Source of the DNA: an uncultured Candidatus Saccharibacteria bacterium
GTDB lineage: Bacteria > Patescibacteriota > Minisyncoccia > Phycocordibacterales > JACNGX01
Assembly: GCA_964621395.1 (NCBI GenBank)
Contig: CAZULS010000001.1
Location: 64,615 to 128,614 of the forward strand
Length of the DNA stretch: 64,000 nucleotides
Direction of reading: 5' to 3'
Part shown: positions 3,765-58,031 of the stretch, piece by piece
Position numbering within the stretch: position 1 is the stretch's first letter
Layout of the letters: each line of letters begins with the position of its first letter
Made by a program: the position numbers and the translations under genes
The notes under the pieces: generated by a model
Told to the model about the DNA's origin: nothing
What the model saw: only the letters and a program-made list of their open reading frames with translations
The model's database searches: none

Positions 3765-3778
3765 GAATATACAAAAAG

Positions 3779-6292: not shown

Positions 6293-6293
6293 T

Positions 6294-12216: not shown

Positions 12217-12449
12217 TTAGAACCGGTCTCACTGAAAATGGCTGTTCTCGCGCCCACACTGCGAGCGAACCGTCGTCGCGGAGACCACAACGTACTACTC
12301 GTACGTTATGGTTGAGCGACAAGGTGCAGCCGCAGTGTGGGCGCGAGAACGGCGCATGCGTAGCTCTTGAATATGTTTCTATTATTTTTCAACGTTTTCA
12401 GTGAGACTGGTTCTATTATTTTTCAACGTTTTCAGTGAGACTGGTTCTA
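12217..12449. mobile_element. MITE-like element, M family, about 200 bp, TIR TAGAACCGGTCTCACTGAAAA / TTTTCAGTGAGACTGGTTCTA. The 3-prime terminal 33 bp is tandemly duplicated (12381-12415 and 12416-12449).
   Basis: Terminal inverted repeats and a conserved core (gagaccacaacgtac...ggttgagcgacaaggtgcagcc) shared with the copies at 20100, 35707 and 40392. Confidence 0.7.
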
Positions 12450-14130: not shown

Positions 14131-14415
14131 ACTAATTCAAATGATTACATTATCCCCAAGGGTGTTTTGTATATTATTAAATAAAATTATTATTATTATA
14201 GACTCGGTGGAAAAGTGGAAAGGTATTCTTTTTCGTTATATATCAATGACGGAGCGATATATTCTCATGTGAATAACGTCGGCATAGAAGTGAGTGATTC
14301 TGTTTGCCTGTGTATAGTATATTCACTCCCTCTCTTTTTCCACATATTGTTATATTTTTATACACATACACATACAGGTACTTTTCCCGAGGCTCTACAC
14401 ATATTTTACCCCGCT

Positions 14416-15750
14416 CTACACCAGTGATCGAATTTTTTCCACCTCACTACGAAGACTATTGTCGTCGCTTAAATCTTTTTTCATCTTCTCACAGGAATGC
14501 ATCACTGTGGTGTGGTCTCTTCCCCCAAGATTTTTTCCAATCATCGGATAGGATGCATCATAATCTTCTCGCAAGATATACATCACAATTTGTCGCGGTT
14601 TTACAATCTCTTTTCGTCTCGTTTTCTCATAAATATCCTTTTCAGGAATATCATAGAAGCCGGCAACAGTCTTCACCACATCTTTCACAGAGATGTTCTT
14701 CTTCGGTTTTTCAGCGTGTTTGATGATACGTTTTACTTCATCGAGTGTGAGACCTTTCTCTCCCACTGAGGAATGGCACATGAGGGTGTTAATAGCGCCC
14801 TCAAGCTCGCGAATATTCCCTTCAATGGAAAGAGCAAGATAATCAACAACATCCCCGGGTACTTCAATACCCCGTGAACGAAGCTTCATGGTAATAATAG
14901 AGCTTCGAGCCTCATATTCCGGCTGATTAATGTCCACAATCATGCCGGCGCTAAAGCGTGATTTGAGACGTGACTCAAGACCGGGAATGAAATTGGGGTG
15001 TACGTCGGAGGAGAAAATAATTTGCTTATTACTGTCGTAGAGAGCATTAAAGACGTGGAAGAGTTCCTCTTGCGTTTTTTCTTTATTGGAAAGAAACTGA
15101 ATGTCATCCATGATGAGAGTATCGAAATTGCGATATTTTTCTTTGAAGACATTCGTCGTGTCATTTTGAAGAGAGGAAATGTAGTCAACGAGAAATTTTT
15201 CCGATGTGATGTAGAGTACACGCTTCTTCAAATCTTTTCTCAAATGATTTCCCACCGATTGGATGAGATGGGTCTTCCCCACTCCTGTTCCTCCATAGAC
15301 AAAAAGCGGATTATAGGTGACACCAGGATTTTTAATAATCGCCTGGGCCGCGGCGTACGCTAAATTATTGAATGATCCAACAATAAACGATTCGAATGTG
15401 TAGCGTGGATTGAGATTGCTCTCTTTGTCGACATACACGTCAGCAAGGGGTAGCTCTCCCACCTCACAGCTTTGTACTTTTTTCTCCTCTCCTTCTTTTG
15501 GCACCTTCGCAATAACATATTCGAGCCCACGTACACCGTCGGAGAGCTCACGCAATGACTTTAAAATCATTGTGTGAAATTTTTGTGACAACCATTCTTT
15601 CACGAATTCGTTGGGCACGGCGACGAAGACAGTCCCCTCGTCTTGCTTGACGATGTAGGTGTTGCGAAACCAGGTGCTGAAGTTTGCTCGAGAGATTTGC
15701 GACTCCACTTCGCTGAGTACACTATTCCAAAGTTGAGAGTTGTCGACCAT
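14416..15750 (-). CDS. dnaA: Chromosomal replication initiator DnaA
   Basis: AAA+ Walker A GTGVGKTHL, box VII, C-terminal DnaA-box-binding HTH (MYILREDYDASYPMIGKNLGGRDHTTVMH). Start moved to MVDNSQLW (Met75 of track ORF 14416..15972). Confidence 0.9.
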   Translation of the reverse strand: MVDNSQLWNSVLSEVESQISRANFSTWFRNTYIVKQDEGTVFVAVPNEFVKEWLSQKFHTMILKSLRELSDGVRGLEYVIAKVPKEGEEKKVQSCEVGELPLADVYVDKESNLNPRYTFESFIVGSFNNLAYAAAQAIIKNPGVTYNPLFVYGGTGVGKTHLIQSVGNHLRKDLKKRVLYITSEKFLVDYISSLQNDTTNVFKEKYRNFDTLIMDDIQFLSNKEKTQEELFHVFNALYDSNKQIIFSSDVHPNFIPGLESRLKSRFSAGMIVDINQPEYEARSSIITMKLRSRGIEVPGDVVDYLALSIEGNIRELEGAINTLMCHSSVGEKGLTLDEVKRIIKHAEKPKKNISVKDVVKTVAGFYDIPEKDIYEKTRRKEIVKPRQIVMYILREDYDASYPMIGKNLGGRDHTTVMHSCEKMKKDLSDDNSLRSEVEKIRSLV

Positions 15751-16060
15751 AGAACATGAGATATGTGACACGAATAACGTCACACCATTATAGTATGAGT
15801 GGACACTGTGTGGAAACTTGCAAACCTTGGAAAAGTCTGTTGATAACATGTGGAAAACCTCTTCGAGGCAATATAACAAAAACCAAAAAACAAATTCCAA
15901 ATAATACCCAATATAAAAATACCAATACCAAAACACTCTTGTAACTTTTTTGAATTTTGAATATTTGGTCATTGGTTTTTATTTGTGATTTGGTGCTTGT
16001 GATTTGGTTTTTCACTTGTCCCCTTGCATTTTTACGCCAATACGGTATAGTGGTCCCACT
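15751..16060. promoter_or_regulatory. Candidate oriC / dnaA control region, AT-rich with DnaA-box-like 9-mers (TGTGGAAAC, TTGATAACATGTGGAAAA). A ~50-bp repeat tttggtcattg...tatttgtgatttggtgcttgtgatttgg and a caaattccaaataataccNaatat motif recur downstream of dnaN at 12722-13026.
   Basis: Sequence inspection and dnaA-rpmH divergent arrangement. Direct repeats flank the dnaA-dnaN unit. A second DnaA-box-like/AT-rich tract lies between dnaA and dnaN (14131-14415). Confidence 0.45.
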
Positions 16061-16195
16061 ATGTCAAAGACGTATAACCCCAGCAACAGAAAACGCAAGA
16101 CAACCCACGGGTTTTTGGTCCGTAAGGCAACACCAGGCGGTCGTGCAGTACTCAAAAATCGCCGCCGCAAAGGACGCACGAAGCTTTCTGTGTAA
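16061..16195 (+). CDS. rpmH: 50S ribosomal protein L34
   Basis: [44 protein letters not shown]. Confidence 0.9.
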
Positions 16196-16342
16196 TATTT
16201 CATTCTACAAAAATCATCCGACACCACTCCCAGATTTGAGAAGTGTAATAAGATTTCATAAAAAACATTACATTTCCAGGTAATGTTTTTTATTTGGACG
16301 CACAAGAGTGGTGTCGGATTGGTTTTTGTATACAATATACTT

Positions 16343-16690
16343 ATGCTTCCGAAAAAAAGACGTATTCCCACAGTGTGGTTTAAGGGGCGATATCGCCGTG
16401 TTGGAGCACAAAAAGGATCTCATGTATCAGTGAGCGTTTTTGAGGCGTCTGAAAAAAGCTCCCCTACTCGTTTTGCGTGTGTTGTCTCAAAGAAAGGCGG
16501 AGTAAATGCCGCTATGCGCAACAGTATCCGTCGCAGAGTATATGCAATCATTGAGGAGTTACTTCCTCGTGTGCAAAACGGCCTCTATTGCACTCTTTCA
16601 CTTTCAAAAGATGTGCAGGACATTTCACATGAGGAATTGAAGAGCGAGATTCAAGATCTTTTGGAGAAAAGCAATGTGATTAATACGTAG
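16343..16690 (+). CDS. rnpA: Ribonuclease P protein component
   Basis: RFACVVSKKGGVNAAMRNSIRRRVYAII matches the RnpA RNR motif region; rpmH-rnpA synteny. Confidence 0.8.
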   Translation: MLPKKRRIPTVWFKGRYRRVGAQKGSHVSVSVFEASEKSSPTRFACVVSKKGGVNAAMRNSIRRRVYAIIEELLPRVQNGLYCTLSLSKDVQDISHEELKSEIQDLLEKSNVINT

Positions 16691-16714
16691 GTATACCAAT
16701 GAACATACCGTGGT

Positions 16715-16972
16715 ATGTTCATTGGTATGGTTGTGTCATCTTTCTTTATATTCTGTATTCGTGTTTATCAAACGCTCTTTTCCCGAGAACAAAGTGTCTG
16801 GGTGAAGTGGGGTATTGTGCGTGAGAAAAAGACCTGTATCTTTTATCCCACGTGCTCCGAATACATGATTCTCGCAATCAAAAAATATGGCCCATGGAAA
16901 GGAGTGAAAAAAGGCCTGAACCGCATAAGACGCTGCAACCCCAACACTCCCCCGTCGGTAGATATTCCCTAG
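16715..16972 (+). CDS. yidD: Membrane protein insertion efficiency factor YidD
   Basis: [34 protein letters not shown] motif. Confidence 0.8.
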
Positions 16973-17718
16973 AGACTTTTCCACACGAATGTTAGGAATG
17001 TGCGCTGCATGTCAGCGATTGCTTTATCTGTGATGACGACAGCGACGCGGTTTTCAAAGGAGATAAGTGCGAGTTTGTCTCCGGTTACGAGAAGGTCCGA
17101 CTGGAATTTCATTGACGTGGAAAGGGTTTTGTTTTTTACGAAACTTACGTATTCTTTCATATTCAATTGTTCTGTTGCCGCTTCGGATTTTTCAATCAGG
17201 TTGTGTATAGTGATTTCGTGCTCTTTTACTTTCATAAGAAGGGCATGATTTTCTTCTTTTGAGAACAGTGAGAAGAATGCTTCAGGTGAGTAAATGGTAT
17301 AAATATCCTGCCAGGTATTAAAAATTTCTTCATATGCGGCTATAAGCCCTCTCCTCCCCTCGTAGGTGACGATATTTGGCTTGGAGGCCGATTGAGCATA
17401 GAGTGATTCAAGCTCTGGAATAATCGCATTTATCCGATTTTTTGTGTAATCAAGAGACCGTTTTTCTTTTTCGAGATATGACACAATAGAACGAGGGTGT
17501 GTCGCTGCATATTCTAGACGTTTCCCCCGTTTGGTTTGTTGAATTAAACCTTTTTCTAAAAGCTCCTCAAGATACTGATATGTGGTTGTGCGTTTAATGC
17601 CCGTCTTTTTTGCAATGTCTGTTATATTCCCACTCCCCATACGGAGAATGGTGATATACACGGAAATGCTTGTCTCTTTGAGTCCGAGACGCATGAGATT
17701 TTTTTGTATATGTTCCAT
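16969..17718 (-). CDS. TrmB-family HTH transcriptional regulator, inserted antisense between yidD and yidC
   Basis: N-terminal winged HTH ([42 protein letters not shown]) with a TrmB-like C-terminal domain. Confidence 0.6.
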
Positions 17719-17909
17719 ACTATAAATATACACAAACTATAAAGAGTGTCAATATATTTTGGCACATTTTATCCATATATTATAATCAGACTCTTTATTT
17801 ACAACGTATGATGAGTTTTGTCTCTGTATAACTTGACAGAAATAGAGAACGATATACGTTATGTGCAGATTCAATTTTTCTTCCTCAAACAATATAAAAG
17901 GAGAAAATA

Positions 17910-18227
17910 ATGTATTCATTAGCACAAAAGGCACTCGATTATAAAATCGACAGACCAAGCACTCCTGCTTGGAAAGAGCAGCTGCTCAGTAGTATGTTCG
18001 ATGATTTTTTCTCCACCACAGAATCTTCGGACACTCTAATGGCTGGCTTTTTCTTGGTACCTATAACCTTGCTCGGTCTATTGGCAGGCATGTATGTGTT
18101 GCAGGGTACGTATGATCGCGCAATTGTGACTATAGTATTTGCTATGGTTCTTGTACTACTCTTTCTCTCTATGTGCCTCAATGCCAATGCGGTCGATGAA
18201 AGGAGGTTGTGGAAATACTCATTATAG
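17910..18227 (+). CDS. Small 2-TM membrane protein (105 aa)
   Basis: ORF track. Hydrophobic helices. Its 5-prime leader and N-terminus resemble the next gene (taatgtattcattagcacaaaag vs taatgcattattcattagtacac). Confidence 0.45.
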   Translation: MYSLAQKALDYKIDRPSTPAWKEQLLSSMFDDFFSTTESSDTLMAGFFLVPITLLGLLAGMYVLQGTYDRAIVTIVFAMVLVLLFLSMCLNANAVDERRLWKYSL

Positions 18228-18288
18228 GAGCCATTAAAAAACTAAAAGTCACTAAAATTGTTCGATACAAGAAAAATAAAGGAGGATA

Positions 18289-18609
18289 ATGCATTATTCA
18301 TTAGTACACCACTCTGTCTCTCATAAGGTTGAGAGAGAAAAAGAAAGAAAAAAGAGGAGAAATATCTTATTTCTCCTCAAGAAAAACATCTCCTGGGTAA
18401 TAGGAGTTGTAATATGCAGCTTACTTGGCTTCGTATGCTTCAAAGCGGGTTTCGGAGGTATGCCAGAGGCAGCTGCTTCCGAGGAGAGAGACGCGTGGGC
18501 ATTTGTCGTGGTTCTAGGATGTTTTTTCCTTTTTCTTGGTTTCGGCGCTTATCTCAATTTAAGAGATGAGGTTATTGAAGAAAAGAGAAAGTTGCATCCA
18601 AAACTTTAG
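18289..18609 (+). CDS. Small 2-TM membrane protein (106 aa), paralog of 17910..18227
   Basis: Similar start context and topology. Confidence 0.45.
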   Translation: MHYSLVHHSVSHKVEREKERKKRRNILFLLKKNISWVIGVVICSLLGFVCFKAGFGGMPEAAASEERDAWAFVVVLGCFFLFLGFGAYLNLRDEVIEEKRKLHPKL

Positions 18610-18681
18610 GACTTGAGGCGATCATGCGTGGTCGCCTTTTTCTTGCTTTTAAGGATTAAACAGCGTACAATAGCTTGTACT

Positions 18682-19482
18682 ATGATTGGTTTTTTCGAGA
18701 CAATTATTTACCAACCTCTGTACAACGGTCTCGTGTTTTTGGCGTATTTTATGCCGTGGGCGGATATTGGCTTGGCGGTGATTGCGCTCACGCTCATTGT
18801 GAAGTTTGCACTCTTCCCGCTCATGCATACCACCACAAAAAGTCAGGTGAAGATGCGTGAAATTGAGCCGGAGCTTAATAAGCTCAAAGAAGATCTCAAA
18901 GACGACAAAGAAAAGCAGGCACGCGAACTCATTGCGCTGTATAACAAGCACGGCATTAATCCGGCAACAGGGTGTGTGGCGCTTATTATTCAGCTACCGA
19001 TTATTCTCGGGCTCTATTGGGTCTTTAAGGATATTCAATTTGATCCGGCAACAACCGGTGCGATGATTGAAAACGGTGTACGAGCTGCCGGCGCTTTTCT
19101 CAATGAAGCGATTCTCTATCCCTTCACTCCCCGACCGGAGTATCTTCACACGGAATTTCTCGGATTTATTGATATGACCGGCCGAAGTATTCTTCTGGCA
19201 GTATTTGCGGGTATGACGCAATATTACCAAATGAAACTCTCTATGCCCGGAGAGAGGCCAACGTTGCAGAACACAGGATCGTTCAAAGATGACCTTATGC
19301 AGAACATGAAATTCCAAATGCGCTACGTCTTTCCTTTCTTTGTGGTTATCTTTGCCTACACTATTTCATCGGCTATTGCATTGTATTGGGTTATCAGTAA
19401 TATGTTTGCTATCGGGCATGAATGGCATGTGCGGAGAGAATATGAACGCTCGAAGGAAAGTGCCCAGGAGGGTGCCGCATAA
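18682..19482 (+). CDS. yidC: Membrane protein insertase YidC (short form)
   Basis: YidC/Oxa1 core helices, and yidD...yidC-jag synteny. Start at MIGFFETI. Confidence 0.8.
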   Translation: MIGFFETIIYQPLYNGLVFLAYFMPWADIGLAVIALTLIVKFALFPLMHTTTKSQVKMREIEPELNKLKEDLKDDKEKQARELIALYNKHGINPATGCVALIIQLPIILGLYWVFKDIQFDPATTGAMIENGVRAAGAFLNEAILYPFTPRPEYLHTEFLGFIDMTGRSILLAVFAGMTQYYQMKLSMPGERPTLQNTGSFKDDLMQNMKFQMRYVFPFFVVIFAYTISSAIALYWVISNMFAIGHEWHVRREYERSKESAQEGAA

Positions 19483-20099: not shown

Positions 20100-20298
20100 C
20101 TAGAACCCATCTCATATTAAATGACTTATTCTCGTGCCACATATTCGCAGCGTAGATGTCTCGGAGACCGTGCCGCACTTTTGTGCGGTGCAGTTGAGAG
20201 ACAAGGTGCAGCCGAATATGTGGTGCGAGAATTGCCAAGCTCTTACACGAAGTGTAAAAAGTATTATCTTAGCGGTTTAATATGAGATGGGTTCTAGT
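20100..20298. mobile_element. MITE-like element, M family variant (TIR CTAGAACCCATCTCATATTAAA / TTTAATATGAGATGGGTTCTAG), 199 bp
   Basis: Perfect 22-bp TIRs, and an internal core homologous to the other M copies (gagaccgtgccgcacttttgtgcggtgcagttgagagacaaggtgcagcc). Confidence 0.7.
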
Positions 20299-20299
20299 T

Positions 20300-21595
20300 T
20301 CAGTAATTCACATTCTCCATTGCCTCATCGATGCGGAGAATCCATGGCGTCATGTCGCGCTTATTGGTAAAGAGAAGGAGTGAGCCGTCGTCGCTCAGAA
20401 TTGGGTTGATCAAGTCGATGGTGGCATCATACATATTTGGATCAACAAGAAAGAAGCCGGTAGACTCTTCGACATCGTAGTACCATATATCATCTTCAAA
20501 GAACATTTCCCCTTTGTACCACGTGTCGGGATATTGGATAAAAGGAAGGGAAAATGGCACTCCGCAATAGACACCCTCCCCCGCCGTGTCCCAGACACAT
20601 TTTTCAGGAAGTGTATCAAAAAGGAGCGCTGTTTCTTCCCCATCTGAGAAGACTTTTAGTATGAGCGTGTTCCCCAAGCTTTCAGAGAAAAGCACTTTCG
20701 TGCCGTCGGGGTTGACGAGTGTGGTGAGACCATTTATGCCGCTCAATAGAGGATTAAGTGTGCTTGAGGAGAGCGATGTGTAGTAGCTGTACCCGGGAAC
20801 AGATGCCGAGGGCTTTGTGGTGAGGTAGATATAGTCGTCTTCCGCCCAGTCGATAAGCCATTCGGAGAGCGGCGAAGAGAATGTCTCTTTCGGGCCTTCT
20901 CCGGAGAATGGCACAATAATGCCGCGAGAGCCACTTTGCGTTCGCTCAAGGAGAAAGAGTGAGTCTTGCGAGGGGTTGGTATCGAATGTAAGAGTACCGG
21001 TGCGGAGGAATTCTGCCTGAGCAACACCAATGACTTCCCCCTCTTCTTCTGCCGTGGAGATTGAAATGCCGGTCCCCTCAACAACATCAGTATCATTCAG
21101 TGAACGAGTAAAAAGCTGTGATCCGTCGGCACTGAAGAGTGCATCGTGAATATGCGGGATGGTTGTGTTGGTAATACGCGTTGCCTCAAGTGTGTCAACG
21201 GGGATATCAAATATATGTCCGGTCGCTTTTGTGATCACGCGAATAGCAAGAACATCCTCAGCCCCTTCTGTTTCTTCCTGTATTTCGGAGAGAGTGACAA
21301 ATGTCGCTCCTGACACGGGCTCGGGGAATACTTGGGAGATAAGGTCGATAGCGGGTTGAGTGCCGTCACTTGGCGTTGTGCCTCCCTGGGTACCATTCTC
21401 CTCTCCCCCACCGAAGAGAGAACCGAGAACACCCCCTCCTTCACCGCCAAAGAGAAAGCTAAAAAAACCACCACTTTGTATTTCCTCGGAAGTGTTATTG
21501 CGGTTGAGAAACATCATTCCCGCACCAGCAAGGATGGCGACGATAATGAGGATGAATCCCCAGAGAATAATTTGTTTTTGTCGTGCGCTGTTCAT
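20300..21595 (-). CDS. N-terminally membrane-anchored extracytoplasmic protein with a Gly-rich linker; last gene of the T4SS-like operon
   Basis: TM helix at residues 12-30, GGEGGG linker, and beta-rich C-terminal region. Confidence 0.5.
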   Translation of the reverse strand: MNSARQKQIILWGFILIIVAILAGAGMMFLNRNNTSEEIQSGGFFSFLFGGEGGGVLGSLFGGGEENGTQGGTTPSDGTQPAIDLISQVFPEPVSGATFVTLSEIQEETEGAEDVLAIRVITKATGHIFDIPVDTLEATRITNTTIPHIHDALFSADGSQLFTRSLNDTDVVEGTGISISTAEEEGEVIGVAQAEFLRTGTLTFDTNPSQDSLFLLERTQSGSRGIIVPFSGEGPKETFSSPLSEWLIDWAEDDYIYLTTKPSASVPGYSYYTSLSSSTLNPLLSGINGLTTLVNPDGTKVLFSESLGNTLILKVFSDGEETALLFDTLPEKCVWDTAGEGVYCGVPFSLPFIQYPDTWYKGEMFFEDDIWYYDVEESTGFFLVDPNMYDATIDLINPILSDDGSLLLFTNKRDMTPWILRIDEAMENVNY

Positions 21596-22630: not shown

Positions 22631-24496
22631 TTATACCACGCCAGCAATGCTTGAAAGCGGATTGTCCGGAGCCTCATTCCCGCCGCTTTCTTTGAGGGCT
22701 TTCTTTGCTTCACGAATCTGGAGTACCTGTGAAGGATCGGAGGTGATGATTTGCTCCTCGGTGTAGGAAGCGAGGATTTTTATGGCAACGTGCTTGAGCC
22801 CTGCGAAGAATATACCTTCGCCGACATCGGATTCAAGAAGCAAAAATTTCTCTTCGTCGGTGAGATTGAATGTCTTTTGAACGGTGTCGATGGCTGTCGG
22901 TGATTGCTTGAGGAGAAGCTGGATTGAGGAGTTGGTGATAATCGGCAAGCCATACGGTGAACGAAGGAAGTCGGACACATCTTGGGTGATGGTTGCCACG
23001 CCAAGATAGTATTTTCGACCACGTTTCGTCATGCCAAAGAGGAACGATGCCGTGTCTTCGGATTTCATCATCCACCATGCCTCATCGATCACGAGAAGTC
23101 GCTTTTTAAGCTCGCGGCGAACGGCATTCCAGATAAAGTGGGTGATGATGTGCATGGCAACCGTCTTAAGCTCATCTTCCATATCACGCACAGAGAAGAC
23201 CACAAACTTTTTATTGATATTGATATTGGTTGGGCGGTTGATAAATTCAGACCACGTACCTTTTGTGTATTTTGAAAGACGATTGAGAAGTGACTCCCCT
23301 CCTTCCATGCCGGAGAGTACCATTTCAAAATCGGAAAGAAGCGGCGGTACAACATGCGAGAGGTCTGAATCGGGTGTAATGTCTTTGAGTGCGTAGGTTT
23401 CCGTGATGGCACGGTCGATGATGGAATCTTCCTCGGGAGACAGTCCTCCAAGCATGATACGGAAAAGACCGACGAGCGAAATGGTATTGGCACGAAGAAC
23501 ATCAGCCGCCGTCTCATCCTCACTGGGCATGGGAAGGTCGAAAGGATTGATGTGATGAGGAGATGTGAGCGAGATATTAAAATAGCGACCGCCTGCGGCT
23601 TCTGCCATAAATTCATATTCGCGCTCCGGGTCAATCACAATCACCTCCGTATCAAACATGAGGGTGCGAAGAATTTCAAGCTTGGTAGCAAACGATTTTC
23701 CGGCACCTGAGGTGGCGAAGATCACGGAATTGTAATTTTCCATTGAGAAACGGTCGAAAAGAACGAGGCTGTAATTGTGTCGGTTGATACCGTAGAGAAT
23801 ACCGCGATCGGATGTGAGATTAAATGAGATAAACGGAAAGATGCTAGAGAGCGGCGAAGAATTAAGCTTTGAGTGAATACCGAGCGAGTCGGACCCTGAG
23901 GGAATAACGCTCTTAAACGCGTCTTCTTGCTGGAAGAGGCTGGGCTTGAGATAGACGAGCTTTGATTCGAGAATCGACTTGATTTCCGATTCGATACGAT
24001 CGAGCTCTTCTTCTGTTTTTCCATAGACGGTGATGTAGAGGCCGACATCAAAGAGACGCTCTTGGGCCTGTTGGAGCTGGTCGCGAAGGTTTTCAAGATT
24101 GGCATAGGCGGCGGCAAGCTTCGGATCGCGCACCATACCGCGTTCCTCGCGCATCATAATTTGACTTTCCACCTCGGCAACTTTTTTCTGGAATTTGCGC
24201 AAAATAGCGGCGGTGTCCACCGGATGAATATGGATGGACACATCAAAGACAGCATCGAGGTTTACAATCGGGGAGAACCAGCTGTCGGCGAGATAACGCG
24301 GATAGGAGATGACAAAGAACGTGCGGGCAATACGGTCGCCCAAATTGAGCTCGCGAGGGGTGATTTTAAGTGCCGAGGGAGCAATAACGTCCTTCAATTC
24401 CAATACTGCCGATTCATATATTTCATGCGGCAATACAGGCACCACTTCCGGTGTGTCTTTCCCCTTCCCTATTCCCAATGTATCAAGAAGTGACAT
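22631..24496 (-). CDS. VirB4/TrbE/CagE-family type IV secretion ATPase
   Basis: Walker A IFATSGAGKSFATK, Walker B VIDEAW, 621 aa, domain order typical of VirB4. Confidence 0.8.
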   Translation of the reverse strand: MSLLDTLGIGKGKDTPEVVPVLPHEIYESAVLELKDVIAPSALKITPRELNLGDRIARTFFVISYPRYLADSWFSPIVNLDAVFDVSIHIHPVDTAAILRKFQKKVAEVESQIMMREERGMVRDPKLAAAYANLENLRDQLQQAQERLFDVGLYITVYGKTEEELDRIESEIKSILESKLVYLKPSLFQQEDAFKSVIPSGSDSLGIHSKLNSSPLSSIFPFISFNLTSDRGILYGINRHNYSLVLFDRFSMENYNSVIFATSGAGKSFATKLEILRTLMFDTEVIVIDPEREYEFMAEAAGGRYFNISLTSPHHINPFDLPMPSEDETAADVLRANTISLVGLFRIMLGGLSPEEDSIIDRAITETYALKDITPDSDLSHVVPPLLSDFEMVLSGMEGGESLLNRLSKYTKGTWSEFINRPTNININKKFVVFSVRDMEDELKTVAMHIITHFIWNAVRRELKKRLLVIDEAWWMMKSEDTASFLFGMTKRGRKYYLGVATITQDVSDFLRSPYGLPIITNSSIQLLLKQSPTAIDTVQKTFNLTDEEKFLLLESDVGEGIFFAGLKHVAIKILASYTEEQIITSDPSQVLQIREAKKALKESGGNEAPDNPLSSIAGVV

Positions 24497-24686
24497 ATAG
24501 ATTACAACTGTATTGGCTTACCCAGCCCCACTTTCACCGACAGAGTTGTAATTTTTACGTGCGTTAGAGGCTTCATATACCTTCAAATGATTAATGAAAT
24601 GAATGAGTGAAAGTGGGGCTGGATTGCAGAGGAGTTATCTTACCTTGAACGTTGGATACCTTGTTACTCATTGTATCACGCTTTTA

Positions 24687-25337
24687 CTACAACTGAATCG
24701 GTTTATCGAGCTCGCCGGGGTTAAAGATGCGGTAAAAGAGTTCGATCAATTCTTCCGTACCCAGCGGCGATGTGCGGATGCCGGTGCGTACGAGACCTTG
24801 CTGGACGATGTACGCACGTTGTTCGAGCTGAGAGCGATTGACCTCGAATTCGTCTTCCCCTTTCTTTCCCTCGGGGAACTGTTTTTTCTTCGTTCCCAAA
24901 ACGTCACCGAGGACGCCCGTGTTTGTCGCGATAATTGATGGCGTATACGGGACGACAATGAAGAAATTCTTCGACATGATATTGGTTTGTTCGGTGAATG
25001 TTTTGATGAAGCGAATGTATTCGCGGATCTGCACTTTCGAAAGATCATTCACCTGCTCTTTTTCGCGTCGTTCAAGGAGGGCAACATATGGACGGACATC
25101 ATAGCGGCGGGATTGAATGTAGATTTGCACCGAAAAATCAAGTGAATTGAGGAAATTTTGAAATTGGATGAGGATAGACTGCTGCTCATCCGGAGACTTC
25201 AGCGACATATTTACCGAGGATGTCATCAGTACCATTTTCAGTGACCCATCTTCCATCACAGCCACACCATCCCGCACTTCTTTGATAGGGACGAATTTCT
25301 GAGACGCTTCTGATTTTTTTGCTGTTGATGTTGGCAT
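24687..25337 (-). CDS. T4SS-operon hypothetical protein (216 aa)
   Basis: Operon context only. FVPIKEVRDGVAVMEDGSLKMVL... has no confident family. Confidence 0.45.
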   Translation of the reverse strand: MPTSTAKKSEASQKFVPIKEVRDGVAVMEDGSLKMVLMTSSVNMSLKSPDEQQSILIQFQNFLNSLDFSVQIYIQSRRYDVRPYVALLERREKEQVNDLSKVQIREYIRFIKTFTEQTNIMSKNFFIVVPYTPSIIATNTGVLGDVLGTKKKQFPEGKKGEDEFEVNRSQLEQRAYIVQQGLVRTGIRTSPLGTEELIELFYRIFNPGELDKPIQL

Positions 25338-25352
25338 GGTGATAATAATAGC

Positions 25353-25772
25353 TTACTGTATATTTTTTTGCACATCCAAACTCCAGGCAATATCTTTGAG
25401 CTTGCTTTGCGAGAGTGACGGCACGTGCATCGTCTCTTGAGATGGCATACTCTCTTGGTTAGCCGCTTTTTTCTGTGCCTCTTTCTTTTTCCAATCTTGG
25501 CTCCAGAGGTAAAGCTTGGCTCGCGTTGCATACATGAAGGCAGCTTCCAAGACATCAATGAAAGGGCGGTTGTGTATTTTGAGGAATGCAAGTGCAATGC
25601 CCAAACTCGCAATCGGGAGGATGAGAAGTGCGGCGAAGAAGAGAGGCAACGATACGTAGAGGACATAGGAAATACCTGCTGCTCCCACCAAGTAGAGAAA
25701 CTGGCGAAACGAAAGTGTTCCGGCAAAGATTTTGTCCTCTACCTCGATGAATTGTGGTGTTTGGAATTGCAT
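25353..25772 (-). CDS. PrgI/VirB3-like small 2-TM T4SS protein
   Basis: EDKIFAGTLSFRQFLYLVGAAG followed by two TM helices, a pattern typical of PrgI-family proteins. Immediately upstream of the VirB4-like gene. Confidence 0.55.
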   Translation of the reverse strand: MQFQTPQFIEVEDKIFAGTLSFRQFLYLVGAAGISYVLYVSLPLFFAALLILPIASLGIALAFLKIHNRPFIDVLEAAFMYATRAKLYLWSQDWKKKEAQKKAANQESMPSQETMHVPSLSQSKLKDIAWSLDVQKNIQ

Positions 25773-31400: not shown

Positions 31401-32396
31401 TTACTCACTTGAGAGGGTAAAGATAGTTCCCGACTCAGAGGAAGAAAAGGTTATGCCGCGACGTGCAATTTCCGCAACGACCTCATCCACGGATTCCCAG
31501 AAAACGGTAAGGGTTGTTTGGTACTGTGCGAGACCGGCAAAACCAAGAACGATATCATCTTCACTTGCGGCAATACGCGAAAGTGTTTCGGCGATGATTG
31601 CCACGGCATTCACAAGGGAGAGATGGATATCGGAGAGTGATGCGGGTGCGGTGTGTGAAAGAAGAGAATCGGCGGTATGGGAGAAAAATGTGGCGAATCG
31701 CCCAAGTGCGCGCAAATCGCCCAAACGATCGTTCGTAACGGCCTCAGAGATGATCGCGAGCTCATAGGGGCTTCCCAGTGTGTTGTATTCAGCGATATGC
31801 TCCCCTAAAGCGTTGGCGTATGTGCGCAGTGTTTCGTCGGAATCGTCGCCGATGGAGATGTTCTCTTCTGTGTAGGGATTGGTAATGGCGTTTTGGAGCA
31901 CTTCAGTGGCAAGGAGCGTGTTGAGTACGTCCATATCTCCGAGTGTTGTGCCACCGCTCTTTTGGGAACTTTCATGGAGAGAACTCAGGAAAGCACGCGC
32001 CATTGAATTGGTGCGTGTGGATGAGGCATCATTAACATCTTCAGCGCTTCCGGGAACAAGCGGATATGACTCCAGTGAATCATCGCTCTGATTGATGAGG
32101 GGATTTCTCCGAGACGCGATTTCAATGCCGTCTTCTGTGCCGTCACCGTCGGAATCGGCGACGTTCGGATTTGTCCCCCAGAGCGCTTCTTCCCACATGG
32201 CAAGACCGTCACCGTCGGCGTCGGATGAGAAATGAGCCAATTCTTCTTCGGTGTGAGTCGGGGTGGACGCATCTTCTTGGGATATATATTTCTCCGTGTT
32301 GGAAAAGAGGTACGACGAGACGACAAAAAGAGCAATAAGGACGAGCACGACAAGCGTGAATCTCTTACTGGGGAGATAGTGGGTGATGTGTTCCAT
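31401..32396 (-). CDS. Membrane-anchored protein with DGDG/DSDGDG calcium-binding-like repeats
   Basis: N-terminal TM; SSDADGDGLAMWEEALWGTNPNVADSDGDGTEDGIE; first gene of the minus-strand operon. Confidence 0.45.
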   Translation of the reverse strand: MEHITHYLPSKRFTLVVLVLIALFVVSSYLFSNTEKYISQEDASTPTHTEEELAHFSSDADGDGLAMWEEALWGTNPNVADSDGDGTEDGIEIASRRNPLINQSDDSLESYPLVPGSAEDVNDASSTRTNSMARAFLSSLHESSQKSGGTTLGDMDVLNTLLATEVLQNAITNPYTEENISIGDDSDETLRTYANALGEHIAEYNTLGSPYELAIISEAVTNDRLGDLRALGRFATFFSHTADSLLSHTAPASLSDIHLSLVNAVAIIAETLSRIAASEDDIVLGFAGLAQYQTTLTVFWESVDEVVAEIARRGITFSSSESGTIFTLSSE

Positions 32397-32455
32397 TGAT
32401 TTCTATTATACAAAAAGAATGGATGTCAACCAATAGGGGTGTGTATGAACAGGCT

Positions 32456-32644
32456 CTTAGAACCAATTAAATAACCTACGCAAAAAAGTAAAAGAGGGAT
32501 GCTCCGGGCAGTCGACGAGCAACATCCGGCATAAAAACCGCGAAAATTCTTCACCATATCTCGATATGGCTCAAAATTTGATCAATTTTTCTGCTCGAAT
32601 GTTGCTCGTCTTTATGCTCCGGAGGTTATGTAATCGGTTCTAAG
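32456..32644. mobile_element. MITE-like element, L family, copy 1 (TIR CTTAGAACCAAT...ATCGGTTCTAAG), 189 bp
   Basis: About 90 percent identical to the reverse complement of 34736-34924. Its right TIR supplies the TAG stop of the lnt-like gene. Confidence 0.7.
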
Positions 32645-34178
32645 GTATGGAAACAATGAGAAGCTCCGCTTTTCCACGGGCGGTACTGTGAGTGATTGTG
32701 CCGGAAGGGTTAATGAGAAAAGACGGTACACCATTTCCCGCGTGGATAAAGTGTCGACCGTGTGTCACGGCGTGGATACGTGCTTGGCGAGTGACGAATG
32801 TCCGGAGTGTGTCGCTGCCGTGAAACGATGAATGAGATGCTGTATTTACAAAAAGATCACTTCCCTCACGCGCTCCGGCAGCGTAAAGTTGTGGGGGTGT
32901 GATTTCCGCACAGAAAAGTGCGGTGATTGTGTAATTATGTACGGAGCCGAGGGTGACGGGTGCGTCGAAAGGATCGGGTGTGTACACGCGACGGTTGCGA
33001 AATGTGTCACGCCACTGGGGAGCGATTGTTTCGGCGATGGTGGCAGCGAAAGCGGGCAGGTATTCGCCAAATGGTGTGAGGAAGCGTTTGTGATATGTGC
33101 CCGCAATTGTGCCCTCCGAAGTGTAGAGGTGGTGTGCCAAACGCAAATCACCGCTTTCCTCTCGGTATGTGGTTGAATCTATGGTCGCGCCCCGAGGTGA
33201 AAGATGGGAAGAGAGAAACGTGCCGCGCTCTTCTTCGGAAAGCGACGAAAGGAAGCGAGAATCTTCGGGAAAGACAAGGAGGTCAAGGGTCGGAGTGTTT
33301 TCGGAGAAGAGCGCGGCTATGTCGCTGTGAGTGTGCTTAAGGGTGGTTTGGGTTGAGCCGAATTCGGATATGCTTTCCGTGTGGATGATACCAATAGTGA
33401 GTGAATCGGAAGAGGAGAGTACAGAGCTGCCCTCCTTTCGAGACAATACTGATGGAACAATGATAATGCCGACAAGAGAGAGGATGATTAGTGCTCGAGA
33501 CATGAGAGACGATGCGCGGTCAATACACACAGCAATTCCCATATTGATATAGACAGCGATAAGAGAAAGGGCCGTGAGACCGCCTATGCTTGCGTACAAC
33601 AGAAGTGATGTGTCACTGAGGGGGGCGCCGGCAAAACCGAATGTCCAATACGGACCGATAGCGGCTTCAGGAGCATACCAAAGAACAGAAAAGAGAAAGG
33701 CGCGGAGGTATTCTGTGAGCACAAAAAGGAGTGTTCCCAAGGAAAGAGTACGGAATACTCCACCTTTAAGCCGTGCAATGAGCCAGGCAAAGAGCGCAGG
33801 GCCGATTGAAAGGACAAGCGTCCCTAAGAGCCATACGGAAGCAATAACCGCATATGACACAACAGGGCTTTCAATGCCGACCCATGTGAGCGGGTATGTG
33901 TCGAAAAACCAAAAAATACTGGCACCGAGCCCGAGGATGCCATAGATGAATCCGCCGATAGCGGCGCGCTTCGGTGATTGTGCGCGAAACACAAAGAAGA
34001 AAAACGGCACGAGCGCGATGAGTGAGAAGAGGCCGGTACCGGGAAAGAGAAACAGACTTGCACTCATCATACCGCTCAAAAGCGGGAGAAGATATGAATC
34101 AGGGCGAGTGAATGGTGAGAGGTGCTCGGGCATGGGTATAGTATAAATGAAAAAGAACAAACAAAAAACGGAAAACAA
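32640..34178 (-). CDS. lnt: Apolipoprotein N-acyltransferase-like protein (polytopic N-terminal domain + C-terminal CN-hydrolase)
   Basis: 7-8 N-terminal TM helices; LLVFPEDSRF (Glu), ALFCAEITPPQL (Cys of the catalytic triad). Confidence 0.55.
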   Translation of the reverse strand: MFSVFCLFFFIYTIPMPEHLSPFTRPDSYLLPLLSGMMSASLFLFPGTGLFSLIALVPFFFFVFRAQSPKRAAIGGFIYGILGLGASIFWFFDTYPLTWVGIESPVVSYAVIASVWLLGTLVLSIGPALFAWLIARLKGGVFRTLSLGTLLFVLTEYLRAFLFSVLWYAPEAAIGPYWTFGFAGAPLSDTSLLLYASIGGLTALSLIAVYINMGIAVCIDRASSLMSRALIILSLVGIIIVPSVLSRKEGSSVLSSSDSLTIGIIHTESISEFGSTQTTLKHTHSDIAALFSENTPTLDLLVFPEDSRFLSSLSEEERGTFLSSHLSPRGATIDSTTYREESGDLRLAHHLYTSEGTIAGTYHKRFLTPFGEYLPAFAATIAETIAPQWRDTFRNRRVYTPDPFDAPVTLGSVHNYTITALFCAEITPPQLYAAGAREGSDLFVNTASHSSFHGSDTLRTFVTRQARIHAVTHGRHFIHAGNGVPSFLINPSGTITHSTARGKAELLIVSIP

Positions 34179-34239
34179 AAAGGGGCGCGGCTTCGCCGCG
34201 CCCCTTTTTGTTTATAACAACACGCATCCGCAAGCGATG

Positions 34240-34722
34240 TTATCGCCCAACGATATCCCCTATCCTCACATTGTGCAGACGTGTGAAACCTGAGGGTACC
34301 TCAAGAACATATGAGGCCGGAATCGGCGAGCCAAACAATGTCGGATATGTATCGGGGGAAACACGTCTTTCAATATGAATAATGGTATGTGTCTCATCGA
34401 GCCAGAGAATATCGATAGAGAAGTGCATATCTTTCATCCACATATTGTGAGACCCGGGTGTATCGAAGACAAAAAGCATGCCGGTATCGGGAAGAAGTGC
34501 TTTGCGGCCAGAAAGACCGAGAGCACGCTTTTCTTCCGTGTCGGCAATGTCGGCGGTGATGAGCGTGCCGCCGATTGCGATAAGTTCTCGCTGGTATCCT
34601 TCGGCGAATGATATGTTTCCAAAAGAGAAAGAGAAGGGATCGCCTTGTGCGGAAGAGACGACGATATTGCCGGCAATAAAGGCGACGGCAAGTGTAATGA
34701 GAATGCCAATGAGTGATTTCAT
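34240..34722 (-). CDS. DUF192 (COG1430) family secreted protein
   Basis: GLSGRKALLPDTGMLFVFD, NMWMKDMHFSIDILWLD; signal peptide. Start moved to MKSLIG. Confidence 0.7.
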   Translation of the reverse strand: MKSLIGILITLAVAFIAGNIVVSSAQGDPFSFSFGNISFAEGYQRELIAIGGTLITADIADTEEKRALGLSGRKALLPDTGMLFVFDTPGSHNMWMKDMHFSIDILWLDETHTIIHIERRVSPDTYPTLFGSPIPASYVLEVPSGFTRLHNVRIGDIVGR

Positions 34723-34735
34723 GAATGTATTATAA

Positions 34736-34924
34736 CTTAGAACCAATGAAATAACCTCCGGAGCACAAAGACGAGCAACATTCGAGCAGAAAAATTGATA
34801 CACATTCTGAGCCATATCGAGATATGGTGAGGAATGTTAGCGGTTTTTATACCGAATGTTGCTCGTCGACTGCCCGGAGCAGTGACTTCTTATTTTTTGC
34901 GTAGGTTATTTAATTGGTTCTTGG
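34736..34924. mobile_element. MITE-like element, L family, copy 2 (inverted relative to copy 1), 189 bp
   Basis: TIR CTTAGAACCAATG...ATTGGTTCTTGG. Overlaps the last 6 codons and TAA stop of rsmA. Confidence 0.7.
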
Positions 34925-35691
34925 AGCGCTCGTGCGAGGCAATGCCATGCTTCGGGCGATGCATCTTCCGGACGAATATTTGGGTCAATGTTGCATGCAA
35001 TGAGTGTCTCCGGCGAGCATCCGAGATTTTTTACAAGCTTTTTTCTTTTATGAGCAAATCCTGTGCGGAGGATATCGAAAAAACGTTCTTCATCTTTCTG
35101 TGATTGGAAAGGGTCACGCATGTGTTCAACAACAAGCACGGCAGAATCTACCTTGGGTTGCGGACGAAACGCTCCGCGAGCGACAGTGCGGAGTATGCGC
35201 GGCGTGCCAAATGTTTTCACGGCTACGGAGAGAATGCTCTCTTTTCCGTCCCTTGCGACAATACGCTCGGCAACTTCTTTTTGCACGAGAAGTACCGCTT
35301 TTTTCGGTAGATGTGCACGGGTGAAAAACGTGCGAATGAGAAGGCCGGTAATGTAATACGGAATATTTGCCGCGAGCGTGTAAGAGAGGGGTGTGAGATT
35401 GAGTGTTTCGAAATCAAGCTCGAGTGCATCGCCATACATGAGGGAAAACCGCCCACTCTTCTCCTCTTGCGCGAAGCGCTCTTTCAAATGCTCAATAAGA
35501 CGGTCATCTTTTTCAATGGCCGTGAGGCGCGCCCCACCCCGAAGGAGCGCTTCGGTGAGCACGCCTTCACCCGGACCAATTTCCAGGACCCTTTCCTCTC
35601 CTTCAGAAAGTGCGGCGTGCGCAATATCCGCCACCGCTTTTTCAGAGGTAAGAAAATGCTGCCCAAGAGATTTTTTCGCAAATATACTCAT
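34906..35691 (-). CDS. rsmA: 16S rRNA (adenine1518/1519-N6)-dimethyltransferase
   Basis: LGQHFLTSEKAVADIA, LEIGPGEGVLT SAM motif, 261 aa. Confidence 0.85.
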   Translation of the reverse strand: MSIFAKKSLGQHFLTSEKAVADIAHAALSEGEERVLEIGPGEGVLTEALLRGGARLTAIEKDDRLIEHLKERFAQEEKSGRFSLMYGDALELDFETLNLTPLSYTLAANIPYYITGLLIRTFFTRAHLPKKAVLLVQKEVAERIVARDGKESILSVAVKTFGTPRILRTVARGAFRPQPKVDSAVLVVEHMRDPFQSQKDEERFFDILRTGFAHKRKKLVKNLGCSPETLIACNIDPNIRPEDASPEAWHCLARALQEPIK

Positions 35692-35706
35692 GAATTCATA
35701 TTATAG

Positions 35707-35906
35707 CTAGAACCAGTCTCACTGAAAATGGCTTGTTCTCGCGCCCAAACAGCGAGCGAGCCGATGTCGCGGAGACCGCGCCGCACTCTCGTGCGGTGCG
35801 GTTGAGCGACAAGGCGCAGCCGCTGTTTGGGCGTGGGAACTGCCAAGCGCAGCTCTTGAGTACGATTCCCTTATTTTTTCAATGTTTTCAGTGAGACTGG
35901 TTCTAG
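35707..35906. mobile_element. MITE-like element, M family, 200 bp, immediately upstream of rsmA
   Basis: TIR CTAGAACCAGTCTCACTGAAAA / TTTTCAGTGAGACTGGTTCTAG; conserved core. Confidence 0.75.
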
Positions 35907-36050: not shown

Positions 36051-37031
36051 TTATGTTGCAACGTTTTTTCGTTGCGTGTGTCGCATAAGTGCACGAAACG
36101 GAATAAAGAGAAGTGCCCAAGGAATCACCGAGAGAATGGTGGGCACTACAATCGAGGGCATGTCGCCGAAGAATGTGTCGGAAAGATCAATGGCGAGTGT
36201 GAAGTTCATATAGGTGAGGCATGTGGCAATGGCAATGCGTTCTTTTTTCTTCTTCCACCAAATAGCCGTGTAGCCGAGCACATGCAGCACGATGAAGAGA
36301 ACGATGAGCGCAAAAAGATACAGGAGCGACTCTCCCCCGCTTCCGAGAGCAAGGATTTCTTCCGGGCGTTTGGCAACGACAAAAGCAATGAGGATGGCAA
36401 GGAGGCCGGTGGAAATCGGCGTGAAGGACTGCTCAATACGATTGATCGTGCGGGGAATAATGCGCTTAATGATTTGCGCCAGAATAAATGGCAGGAAGAT
36501 AATAATGGCGAGGCGGCTAAACATGGCGAATGCATCAATGGAAATGTCCGCACCAACCATAAGCGCCACGACAAGCGGCACAGAAAGCGGCGCAAGGAGC
36601 GAGGTAAGGACGGCTTCGACAAGCGCGTACTCTTCCCTTCCACCGGCAAGCGAGGTGAGAAACGGTGCTGTCATGCCCGACGGCATTGCCGAAAGAAGCA
36701 GGAAGGCAATGGCTACTTCCGGATACAGCGCCTCGGTGACAAAAAAGACAACGACCGGCAAAAGCACAAGCATAAAAAGCGCCGAGATGAGGAGCGTTTT
36801 CACATCGCTGAGCGCACCGCGCACTTCATGGAAATCAATTTTAAGAGCGCTCAAAAAGAAAATACCCGCAAGCGCCACAAGCGATACATACGGATACTTC
36901 CCCACCACCTCAGGTGTATGGGTGCCGATACCAATACCAATCACAAACGCCACGCCGATAATAAAGAGAAGTGACGAGCTGATTTTTGCCACAATACGTC
37001 CAAGTGAATGCATGATGTTACTAGTATACAT
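36051..37031 (-). CDS. Bile acid:sodium symporter (BASS/SBF) family transporter
   Basis: About 10 TM helices in a 5+5 repeat organisation typical of the SBF family; 326 aa. Confidence 0.55.
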   Translation of the reverse strand: MYTSNIMHSLGRIVAKISSSLLFIIGVAFVIGIGIGTHTPEVVGKYPYVSLVALAGIFFLSALKIDFHEVRGALSDVKTLLISALFMLVLLPVVVFFVTEALYPEVAIAFLLLSAMPSGMTAPFLTSLAGGREEYALVEAVLTSLLAPLSVPLVVALMVGADISIDAFAMFSRLAIIIFLPFILAQIIKRIIPRTINRIEQSFTPISTGLLAILIAFVVAKRPEEILALGSGGESLLYLFALIVLFIVLHVLGYTAIWWKKKKERIAIATCLTYMNFTLAIDLSDTFFGDMPSIVVPTILSVIPWALLFIPFRALMRHTQRKNVAT

Positions 37032-37571: not shown

Positions 37572-37698
37572 GTCATTCCCGCCCCCGAGCGGGAATCTAT
37601 AAGTCTATATAACCAACCTGCGTCTGCCCTGGATCCTGAATCAAGTTCAGGATGACACCAATATGTATTGGGTGTCATTCCGGGCTTGACCCGGAATC
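37572..37698. repeat. Cluster of three GTCAT-hairpin units with different stems: gtcattcccgcccccgagcgggaatc (+), ggatcctgaatcaagttcaggatgaca (-), gtcattccgggcttgacccggaatc (+)
   Basis: Seen in sequence. The third unit encodes the last residues (DSGSSPE) and TGA stop of gene 37675..38310. Confidence 0.65.
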
Positions 37699-40391: not shown

Positions 40392-40600
40392 ATGAAAGTT
40401 GTTAGAACCAGTCTCACTGAAAATGGCTTGTTCACACGCCCAAACTGCGAGCGAGCCGACGTCGCGGAGACCGTGCCGCACTGCCGTGCGGTGCGGTTGA
40501 GCGACAAGGCGCAGCCGCTGTTTGGGCGTGGGAACTGCCAAGCGTAGCTCTTGAATATGTTTCCCTTATTTTTCAACGTTTTCAGTGAGACTGGTTCTAG
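40392..40600. mobile_element. MITE-like element, M family, 208 bp, immediately upstream of pcrA/uvrD. Flanked by TCGAG-hexamer repeats on the left and a GTTGGTAGTTTTTAG + GC-hairpin motif on the right.
   Basis: TIRs TAGAACCAGTCTCACTGAAAA / TTTTCAGTGAGACTGGTTCTAG; core about 90 percent identical to 35707-35906. Confidence 0.75.
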
Positions 40601-47458: not shown

Positions 47459-47702
47459 TACGAACGATAAATAAAAAACGATAAACGATAAATCAAAAAA
47501 CACGAGCTCGCGCTCGTATTTTTTGTGTAAAAGATAAACCTGTAACGATATTACTTTCCACTGTCATCCCGCACTTGATGCGGAATCCAGGCAGAAGTGG
47601 GTGGTTATATATACTTTTAGATTCCCGCTCGGAGGCGGGAATGACAATCTTTCTTACTCATAAGCAGAAAATGGCACATAAAAACCCCGCACAGAGCGAG
47701 GT

Positions 47703-57960: not shown

Positions 57961-58031
57961 CTAGAACCAATCTCACTGAAAACGTTGAAAAATAAGGAGA
58001 TCATATTCAAGAGCTGCGCTTGGCGGTTCTA
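57961..58031. mobile_element. Miniature (71-bp) derivative of the M-family MITE. It keeps a left TIR CTAGAACCAATCTCACTGAAAA plus about 45 bp matching the right-end subterminal region, and ends ...GGTTCTAA.
   Basis: It is the reverse complement of the right 65 bp of 40392-40600, with a short terminal inverted repeat. Confidence 0.55.

Follow-up and report, generated by a model that had tools for sequence, protein, structure and literature searches.

A 64,000-nt stretch (hereafter the window) of contig CAZULS010000001.1, from an uncultured Candidatus Saccharibacteria bacterium, carries two inverted copies of a 189-bp repeat that bracket exactly two genes, one for a homolog of apolipoprotein N-acyltransferase (Lnt) and one for a DUF192 protein. 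The question is then whether the two genes were brought here between the repeats or whether the repeats arrived separately around genes already in place. Genomes of the Patescibacteria, or Candidate Phyla Radiation (CPR), are small and tightly packed, and are known almost exclusively from metagenomes. The repeats, here called family L (copies L1 and L2), are very probably MITEs (miniature inverted-repeat transposable elements), i.e. non-autonomous, TA-flanked hairpin elements of 185–189 bp, inserted independently at two boundaries of an ancestral and vertically inherited block consisting of rsmA, DUF192, lnt and a gene for a hypothetical protein of 331 amino acids (aa; hyp331). All four genes are found on the minus strand (Table 1).

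Structure of the L repeats and the gene boundaries they occupy

Alignment of the plus strand of L1 to the minus strand of L2 gave 190 columns of which 22 differed, eight of these clustered in one bulge, and contained identical runs of about 33 nt. By BLAST, the two copies are 90.4% identical over 188 nt; the pair was also returned by the repeat finder as inverted arms I1, I3 and I7. The original prediction of two inverted, MITE-like copies of 189 bp with about 90% identity was thereby borne out, as both copies also have terminal inverted repeats and hairpin folds. The terminal repeats are approximately 22 nt long and imperfect, with 2–3 mismatches per copy (CTTAGAACCAATTAAATAACCT / CTTAGAACCGATTACATAACCT), and each copy forms one near-full-length hairpin. 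The predicted RNA minimum free energy (MFE) is −66 to −86 kcal/mol, for which comparison to dinucleotide shuffles gives z-scores of −7.8 to −11.2. One arm has an asymmetric bulge of around 25 nt, and it is here that L1 and L2 diverge the most. The elements have no coding capacity of their own, the open frames within them being read-through from the neighboring genes. No match was found in Rfam at gathering thresholds across the whole window, nor any tRNA or tmRNA, so the hairpins belong neither to a known RNA family nor to an integration-site tRNA. A sensitive BLAST search revealed only these two L copies in the window.

The insertion points could be located by comparison to the contigs encoding the closest Lnt and RsmA homologs. 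In gene orientation, identity to the closest relative overall, a MITE-free contig from the JGI metagenomes (L004), begins 9 nt downstream of L1 with the stretch TTCATACACACCCCTATTGGTTGACATCCATTCTTTTTGTATAATAGAAATCAATG, which is the conserved promoter and start of hyp331 and places L1 between the lnt 3' end and this promoter. Where the two could be aligned, the promoter region is identical to that of L004; comparable motifs can be seen in two further relatives (L005 and L006), and the region marks the ancestral boundary on the right of L1. In the relatives, the rsmA/DUF192 junction has the form ...CTCC-nnG-TATAAT-6/7 nt-ATG, with the rsmA stop overlapping the −10 box of DUF192. The corresponding minus-strand context of L2 reads ...GCGCTCC/AAGAACC...element...GGTTCTA/AGT-TATAAT-ACATTC-ATG, where the slashes mark the element borders. 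L2 thus ends 3 nt upstream of the −10 box, where a −35 element would be, and its position implies insertion within the last rsmA codons.

Both upstream genes end inside the elements. The lnt stop codon had been proposed to lie in the terminus of copy 1, and the TAG at 32642–32640 indeed consists of TA and the G of the L1 terminus TAGAACC. For rsmA, the last six codons and TAA had been placed in copy 2; the end of the gene does lie inside L2, though as the last five codons and the stop ((Q)EPIK and TAA, 34923–34906). After the motif WHCLA, the MITE-free RsmA orthologs continue with KKICL, EKLPV or QVLRVQ, and the window protein with RALQEPIK, so the tails differ rather than being identical as they would be if the element end only mimicked the coding sequence. 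The original prediction that both C-termini were remodelled therefore stands, but the extent is small: four to five residues are added in RsmA, where the tail region is unconserved, and at most about 10 residues are removed from an unconserved region of Lnt, as the closest homolog (P0002, encoded by L004, 72% identity) runs 10 residues past the ...LLIVSIP of the window protein. No conserved residue is touched in either protein, and the changes would be expected to be near-neutral. A different effect is seen for DUF192, for which the start codon at 34722 aligns with that of the orthologs. The frame upstream of this ATG (34723–34815) is open for 31 codons into L2, giving an ORF (open reading frame) of 191 aa, and a public gene call on a Logan contig has a DUF192 protein of 184 aa; the MITE has probably given rise to a spurious annotation in the extension to 34815.

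The gene packing accounts for where the damage falls. A −10-like hexamer (TATAAT/TATACT-like) ends 4–12 nt before 16 of the 53 predicted starts, compared to 3.1% of random positions, a placement suggesting that much of the transcription in this genome is leaderless or near-leaderless. With genes this tightly packed and −10 boxes often only 6–8 nt before the start and overlapping the stop of the gene before, an element inserting between genes clips the upstream ORF. We thus propose that insertion between such genes would hit the final codons of the gene upstream, and that the AT-rich L terminus TAGAACCAATTAAATAA, in which each of the three entering frames meets a stop by base 17, would close the interrupted ORF after 0–6 codons (for L1, all entering frames are stopped by base 31 at both ends). 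Lnt would in this way come to end at the junction TAG, made from TA and the G of the element, and RsmA would gain EPIK. Mobilization would have occurred in trans by a TA-duplicating transposase, possibly of the IS630/Tc1-like type.

Possible effects on expression were considered for both elements. L2 displaces the region upstream of the DUF192 −10 box and may thereby alter expression of the gene; a candidate −35 element for DUF192 in the L2 terminus was rejected, as no match was found at a spacing of 16–18 nt. In the direction of the genes, no U-tract follows the L hairpins, and they are thus not canonical terminators, but they might influence where transcripts end. A strong hairpin resembling an intrinsic terminator, with a 19-bp stem followed by a T run, is located between DUF192 and lnt.

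Gene order in relatives and the origin of the DUF192-lnt pair

The original prediction described the locus as having a composite-transposon-like architecture, in which the two inverted copies and the enclosed genes would form one mobile unit that brought lnt and DUF192 to this site. Two inverted copies with approximately 90% identity around exactly two genes do fit this superficially, but the gene order of the relatives contradicts it. The order rsmA-DUF192-lnt followed by a gene of 331–336 aa, all on one strand and with no MITE, is found in L001/L002 (GCA_964627865.1 and a Logan contig; L001 has a 5' fragment at the contig end), L003 and L004 (both JGI), so the pair is present at the same locus without the repeats. 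In these contigs only 5–8 nt separate the rsmA stop from the DUF192 ATG and 60–127 nt separate lnt from the next gene, leaving no room for a 189-bp element. Even the distant contig L014, whose RsmA is 49% identical, has uvrD...rsmA-lnt-332-aa gene. Furthermore, the amino acid identities to L004 of the four genes in the block are 82, 76, 72 and 76%, i.e. even inside and outside the bracket, and the GC content is 0.49–0.54 across the unit and its neighbors, so that no foreign compositional signature was seen for the unit. The outer flanks of the two copies share nothing past TA/TT, and no transposase was found in the window. Together, the MITE-free gene order, the even identity and GC content, and the lack of a transposase match among the scanned window ORFs refute the composite unit, which we regard as next to impossible, and make the DUF192-lnt pair ancestral rather than cargo, with the elements having arrived separately.

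One observation at first seems to favor the mobile unit, namely that in L005 (2794–2877) and in the TARA contig L006 (8466–8577) no lnt lies between DUF192 and the gene that follows. Both contigs, however, keep DUF192, so the boundary between presence and absence differs from that of the MITE-bounded segment. In L014 it is instead DUF192 that is missing between rsmA and lnt (3995–4001). The rsmA-DUF192-lnt block has accordingly undergone clean losses of single genes in different lineages.

The variable presence of lnt also bears on whether homologous recombination uses the inverted L pair as its substrate, so that the 2.1-kb DUF192-lnt segment could be inverted or the lnt losses in sister lineages promoted. 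The flanking inverted repeat of 189 bp, with 90% identity and identical runs of around 33 nt, would offer such a substrate, and a short-read Logan contig (window 32584–34796) breaks inside both copies. A k-mer assembler will however break contigs at any repeat, and the break says nothing about inversion. The orientation in the window is the ancestral one, as in all relatives; DUF192 was not affected by the losses in L005 and L006, where the deletion point has no L element; inverted repeats yield inversion and not deletion; and there is no adjacent invertase, the only recombinase in the window being a XerC/D-like gene (60566–61477, identified by Pfam) 26 kb from the locus. Taken together, we judge this scenario to be very improbable.

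A separate observation concerns the neighboring gene for an SBF-like transporter (window 36051–37031), whose product shares 95% identity with its counterpart in L006 (5912–6940). The corresponding values for the neighboring genes are 78% for rsmA, 55% for DUF192 and 43% for hyp331, and this mosaic pattern suggests a recent exchange of the transporter gene.

A probable insertion hot spot and the M family

The three closest relatives by RsmA, the window being one of them, each have a different element at the rsmA/DUF192 junction; L001–L004 have no element at either junction. In L006 (RsmA 78% identical) the junction holds an element of M2 type, 76% identical to M2 of the window (Table 1), and the rsmA stop comes directly from its TAGAACC terminus. 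In L005 (RsmA 82% identical) there is a 187-nt hairpin element (z-score −6.4) with termini TAGAGCCTGT (TAGAGCC), in which the final 11 codons of rsmA are located. Its sequence, about 50% identical, can be aligned collinearly to L, the bulge is on the corresponding side, and 19 of 59 pairs have changed on both sides and still pair. The junction thus looks like an insertion hot spot, and the M-type element in L006 shows that it has been hit repeatedly. We favor independent insertions of related families over one old insertion, because intact complementarity of the arms is expected in recently inserted palindromic elements. Beside L1, the abutting 12 nt AGAGCCTGTTCA (32444–32455, minus strand) match the terminal repeat of the L005 type, TAGAGCCTGTTCA, the last 4 nt being ancestral flank; this may be what an earlier element left behind, or it may be coincidental.

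The occurrence of hairpins at this junction could also mean that they are domesticated functional modules (an mRNA 3'-end stabilizer, an RNase III site, an insulator or part of a promoter) selected at gene boundaries, and in a variant of this idea the rsmA/DUF192 element might be one ancient insertion held by compensatory change. All three closest relatives have a hairpin element here, the L005 element has the orientation and frame of L2, and the double-sided changes described above preserve the pairing; such arm complementarity is, however, intrinsic to palindromic MITE families and uninformative on function in place. Between L1 and L2, substitutions break only 4 of 63 MFE pairs in the other copy compared to about 10.3 expected for random substitutions (P ~0.002), a statistic that is inflated since 8 of the 22 differences lie in the single bulge cluster. 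An initial result that the L1/L2 substitutions avoid stems was discarded, as the consensus-structure test was circular (broken pairs were excluded) and the corrected test is weakly significant and confounded by the one cluster of differences. Directly upstream of rsmA, the terminal repeat of M3 provides TTTTCA, a −35-like hexamer, 17 nt from the flanking TATAAT, and the two may form a hybrid promoter for rsmA. The L terminus gives no corresponding −35 match for DUF192, neither hairpin has a U-tract, Rfam holds no match, L001–L004 manage without any element, and the unrelated M-type element in L006 is more in keeping with a hot spot than with a conserved module. We consequently find domestication unlikely. 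A broader proposal, also rather doubtful, is that L, M and the L005 type make up an undescribed CPR-specific MITE superfamily with TAGA(A/G)CC termini that repeatedly colonizes the gaps between stop codons and leaderless-type −10 boxes, and that the rsmA/DUF192 hairpin is a retained functional module kept by compensatory evolution and not the result of three chance insertions. If true, this hairpin would be a transcript-end or insulator element, or half of a promoter.

A second family in the window, M, has five copies. The TIRs (terminal inverted repeats) of L and M had been proposed to be related, and the TAGAACC terminus is indeed common to both: the heptamer occurs 15 times in the window compared to 4.7 expected, with 14 of the 15 at ends of L or M elements, and every end of the two L copies (four) and of the five M copies (ten) reads (T/A)AGAACC. 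No similarity was detected by BLAST between the internal sequences of L and M, and the shared terminus of 7–8 nt is the sole evidence that one type of transposase would serve both families. TA is present at three of four L ends and at all ten M ends, and nothing longer than TA is common outside the elements; candidates for a longer target-site duplication (3, 4 or 5 bp) at the L and M flanks were inverted, not direct, or mismatched. TAGAACC ends with only TA shared suggest a TA duplication of the IS630/Tc1 type.

Searches for further copies and for a transposase were largely negative. Among the 54 window ORFs of at least 90 aa, the Pfam scan detected no transposase domain, Y1 included. The L pattern CTCCGG-N6-8-GACGAGCAACATYCG had no matches in GTDB representative genomes and none in viral contigs; four matches in JGI metagenomes were attributed to chance, as the common stretch was only 27–28 nt. 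The M terminal-repeat pattern was found in two contigs of one CPR metagenome-assembled genome (MAG), where it marks MITEs only, and had no match in viral contigs. L014 encodes, directly upstream of rsmA (2371–3093), a 240-aa protein with a weak match to Y1_Tnp (IS200/IS605-type). An origin of the RAYT (REP-associated tyrosine transposase)/REPIN type was not supported, as no TAGAACC hairpins surround this gene.

Several points weigh against independent TA-duplicating insertion as set out above. The outer terminus of L2 is degenerate, reading AAGAACC for TAGAACC, and thus ends in AA instead of TA. The terminal repeat may itself end in TA, and this alternative is inseparable from a TA duplication because the closest MITE-free relative is only 72–82% identical at the protein level. 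There is accordingly no clean empty site, and the pre-insertion tails are only modelled: in the reconstruction that assumes TA duplication, the Lnt frame would also run 10 codons further. Among the window ORFs and the M-terminus loci there was no autonomous element ending in TAGAACC, and family L is based on two members and one distant relative, with no further copy found in reference genomes, JGI metagenomes or viral contigs. The L005 element and L2, moreover, share position (within 6 nt), orientation and rsmA reading frame, so that a single ancient insertion at the rsmA/DUF192 junction may have been kept by selection.

Other repeats and promoter arrangements were seen in the window. M4 faces uvrD with the end that M3 turns towards rsmA and stops 9 nt short of the uvrD ATG (40393), and M2 starts 3 nt past the stop of an ORF at 20300–21595. 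A short palindromic repeat (GTCATTCCCGC...GCGGGAATGAC type) occurs twice (37572–37618 and 47599–47645), and a repeat of the same type is nested in an M-type MITE of another CPR MAG (L012 1590–1665). A further intergenic family, rich in TTCGTATGTTCGTA / TACGAACATACGAA, is found at 3766–3968, 6247–6302 and 6831–7021, flanking ruvB, yebC and ruvC.

Table 1 Features of the locus and of the M family in the 64-kb window
Feature	Position	Strand	Remarks
L-family MITE copy 1 (L1)	32456..32644	none	TA-to-TA core 32458-32642; between lnt 3' end and conserved promoter of the 331-aa gene
L-family MITE copy 2 (L2)	34736..34924	none	Inverted relative to copy 1; core 34738-34922; between rsmA and DUF192
331-aa hypothetical gene (hyp331)	31401..32396	-	Downstream of lnt; promoter region ~32397-32441
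Lnt-like gene	32640..34133	-	497 aa from likely ATG 34133; ORF open upstream to TTG at 34178
Terminator-like hairpin, strong	34173..34213	-	19-bp stem, then T run; between DUF192 and lnt
DUF192 (COG1430) protein	34240..34722	-	160 aa; N-terminal hydrophobic anchor; Pfam DUF192 1.7e-29
TATAAT -10 box	34729..34734	-	6 nt upstream of DUF192 ATG; conserved in relatives
rsmA/ksgA, 16S rRNA dimethyladenosine transferase	34906..35691	-	Pfam RrnaAD 4.3e-44
Example -10 hexamers	34729-34734; 35700-35705; 32405-32410; 34140-34145
M-family copy	12218-12449
M-family copy M2	20101-20296
M-family copy M3	35708-35905		Directly upstream of rsmA
M-family copy M4	40403-40599
M-family copy	57962-58031		70-bp remnant

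The Lnt homolog, its surroundings and comparison to known elements

The presence of an Lnt homolog in a lineage apparently lacking an outer membrane had been pointed out as notable. The homology itself is well supported. Pfam gave a match to LNT_N (4.4e-8, 33.9 bits, cut-off 27.1) and one to CN_hydrolase just under its cut-off (2.5e-4, 20.9 bits, cut-off 23.2), a full-length profile match to solved Lnt structures was obtained with an E-value of 3e-28, and the TIGR00546 score of 112.9 bits is below the cut-off of 132.9. The Glu-Lys-Cys triad (E305, K364 and C423 in the 512-aa numbering) is invariant in alignment A3, and the triad motifs FPED, HKRFLTPFGEY and LFCAE align with the Lnt motifs in 5n6m. 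The C-terminal transmembrane helix is missing from the window protein; it is also missing from P0002 and P0004, both encoded at MITE-free loci, and present in more distant homologs, and its loss is thus not due to the MITE. The protein shares with the Lnt enzymes of E. coli and P. aeruginosa (5N6H, 5N6M) the membrane LNT_N domain, the nitrilase-like domain and the triad, unlike which it falls under the TIGR00546 cut-off and has no C-terminal helix. It is best described as a divergent but complete Lnt, with substrate and function predicted from sequence.

The homolog is therefore real, but its occurrence is less remarkable than proposed, as Lnt homologs occur in many relatives within the clade. 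In this clade lnt is ancestral, and in L005 and L006 it is dispensable or relocated. Lnt is known in Actinobacteria, which are without an outer membrane of the Gram-negative type, and we take the host to lack an outer membrane as well. No match to LGT or Peptidase_A8 was obtained among the scanned ORFs of the 64-kb window, and literature searches for Lnt in Patescibacteria/CPR returned nothing relevant. The RsmA homologs place the window in Patescibacteria/CPR, within the Parcubacteria group, with Candidatus Yonathbacteria as the best named match (60% identity).

Two further stretches of the window were noted, 13030–19482 and 22631–25772. In these, dnaN, dnaA, rnpA and yidC mark the chromosomal origin region, and genes for a VirB4/TraG-like ATPase and a PrgI-family protein are followed by several large proteins without Pfam match (up to 31376), which may form one secretion- or pilus-type cluster ending beside the locus.

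When compared to described elements, L falls among the known kinds of bacterial MITEs, which are 100–200 bp long with terminal inverted repeats and terminal TA, give long stem-loop transcripts, carry promoter motifs and form in-frame ORF fusions (PMC2229807). In size, inverted repeats, 5'-TA-3' ends and lack of coding, L resembles Correia/NEMIS of Neisseria, RUP of Streptococcus pneumoniae (related to IS630-Spn1), ERIC and RPE of Rickettsia (PMC2229807), and like these it forms a near-full-length hairpin, is inserted at gene boundaries, fuses in frame to ORF ends and possibly carries promoter hexamers. In contrast to them, L has no Rfam similarity, is known from only two copies, resides in a host from the Patescibacteria/CPR and has no partner transposase found in the window. 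Similarly, the L and M ends are flanked by or end in TA without a longer duplication, as in MITEs derived from IS630/Tc1-mariner elements, but here the link is inferred from TA alone, with neither an IS630-type transposase nor a full-length TAGAACC element found.

Of the features that define MITEs, L thus has the small size, the non-coding sequence, the terminal inverted repeats and the presence/absence at orthologous sites (empty in L001–L004, occupied by different elements in L005 and L006); a matching autonomous insertion sequence was found neither in the 64-kb window nor in the M-terminus loci. Dispersed copies number two in 64 kb for L, and for M five in the window in addition to those in another CPR MAG. 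The resemblance to composite transposons such as Tn10 and Tn5 is confined to the two inverted copies of one mobile family around two genes, since the L flanks encode no transposase and the bracketed genes are not inserted relative to the relatives, having instead an ancestral position and the divergence and composition of their neighbors. MITEs of this kind are known in bacteria; literature searches for MITEs in Patescibacteria/CPR found no description, and the lineage is, as far as these searches show, one in which such elements have no earlier description.

The finding is real and fairly ordinary, and the current understanding of MITEs and Lnt is unchanged by it. The locus is nevertheless a clear counterexample to the reading of two inverted repeats around genes as a sign of horizontal acquisition. 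It also illustrates how mobile repeats in CPR genomes break assemblies, as seen from the Logan contig that ends in both L copies, lengthen ORFs spuriously, as in the 191-aa 'DUF192', and alter protein tails. For the biology of the organism, it means that MITEs squeezed in between a stop codon and the promoter that follows are tolerated even in a minimal genome, with one such junction hit repeatedly in sister lineages.

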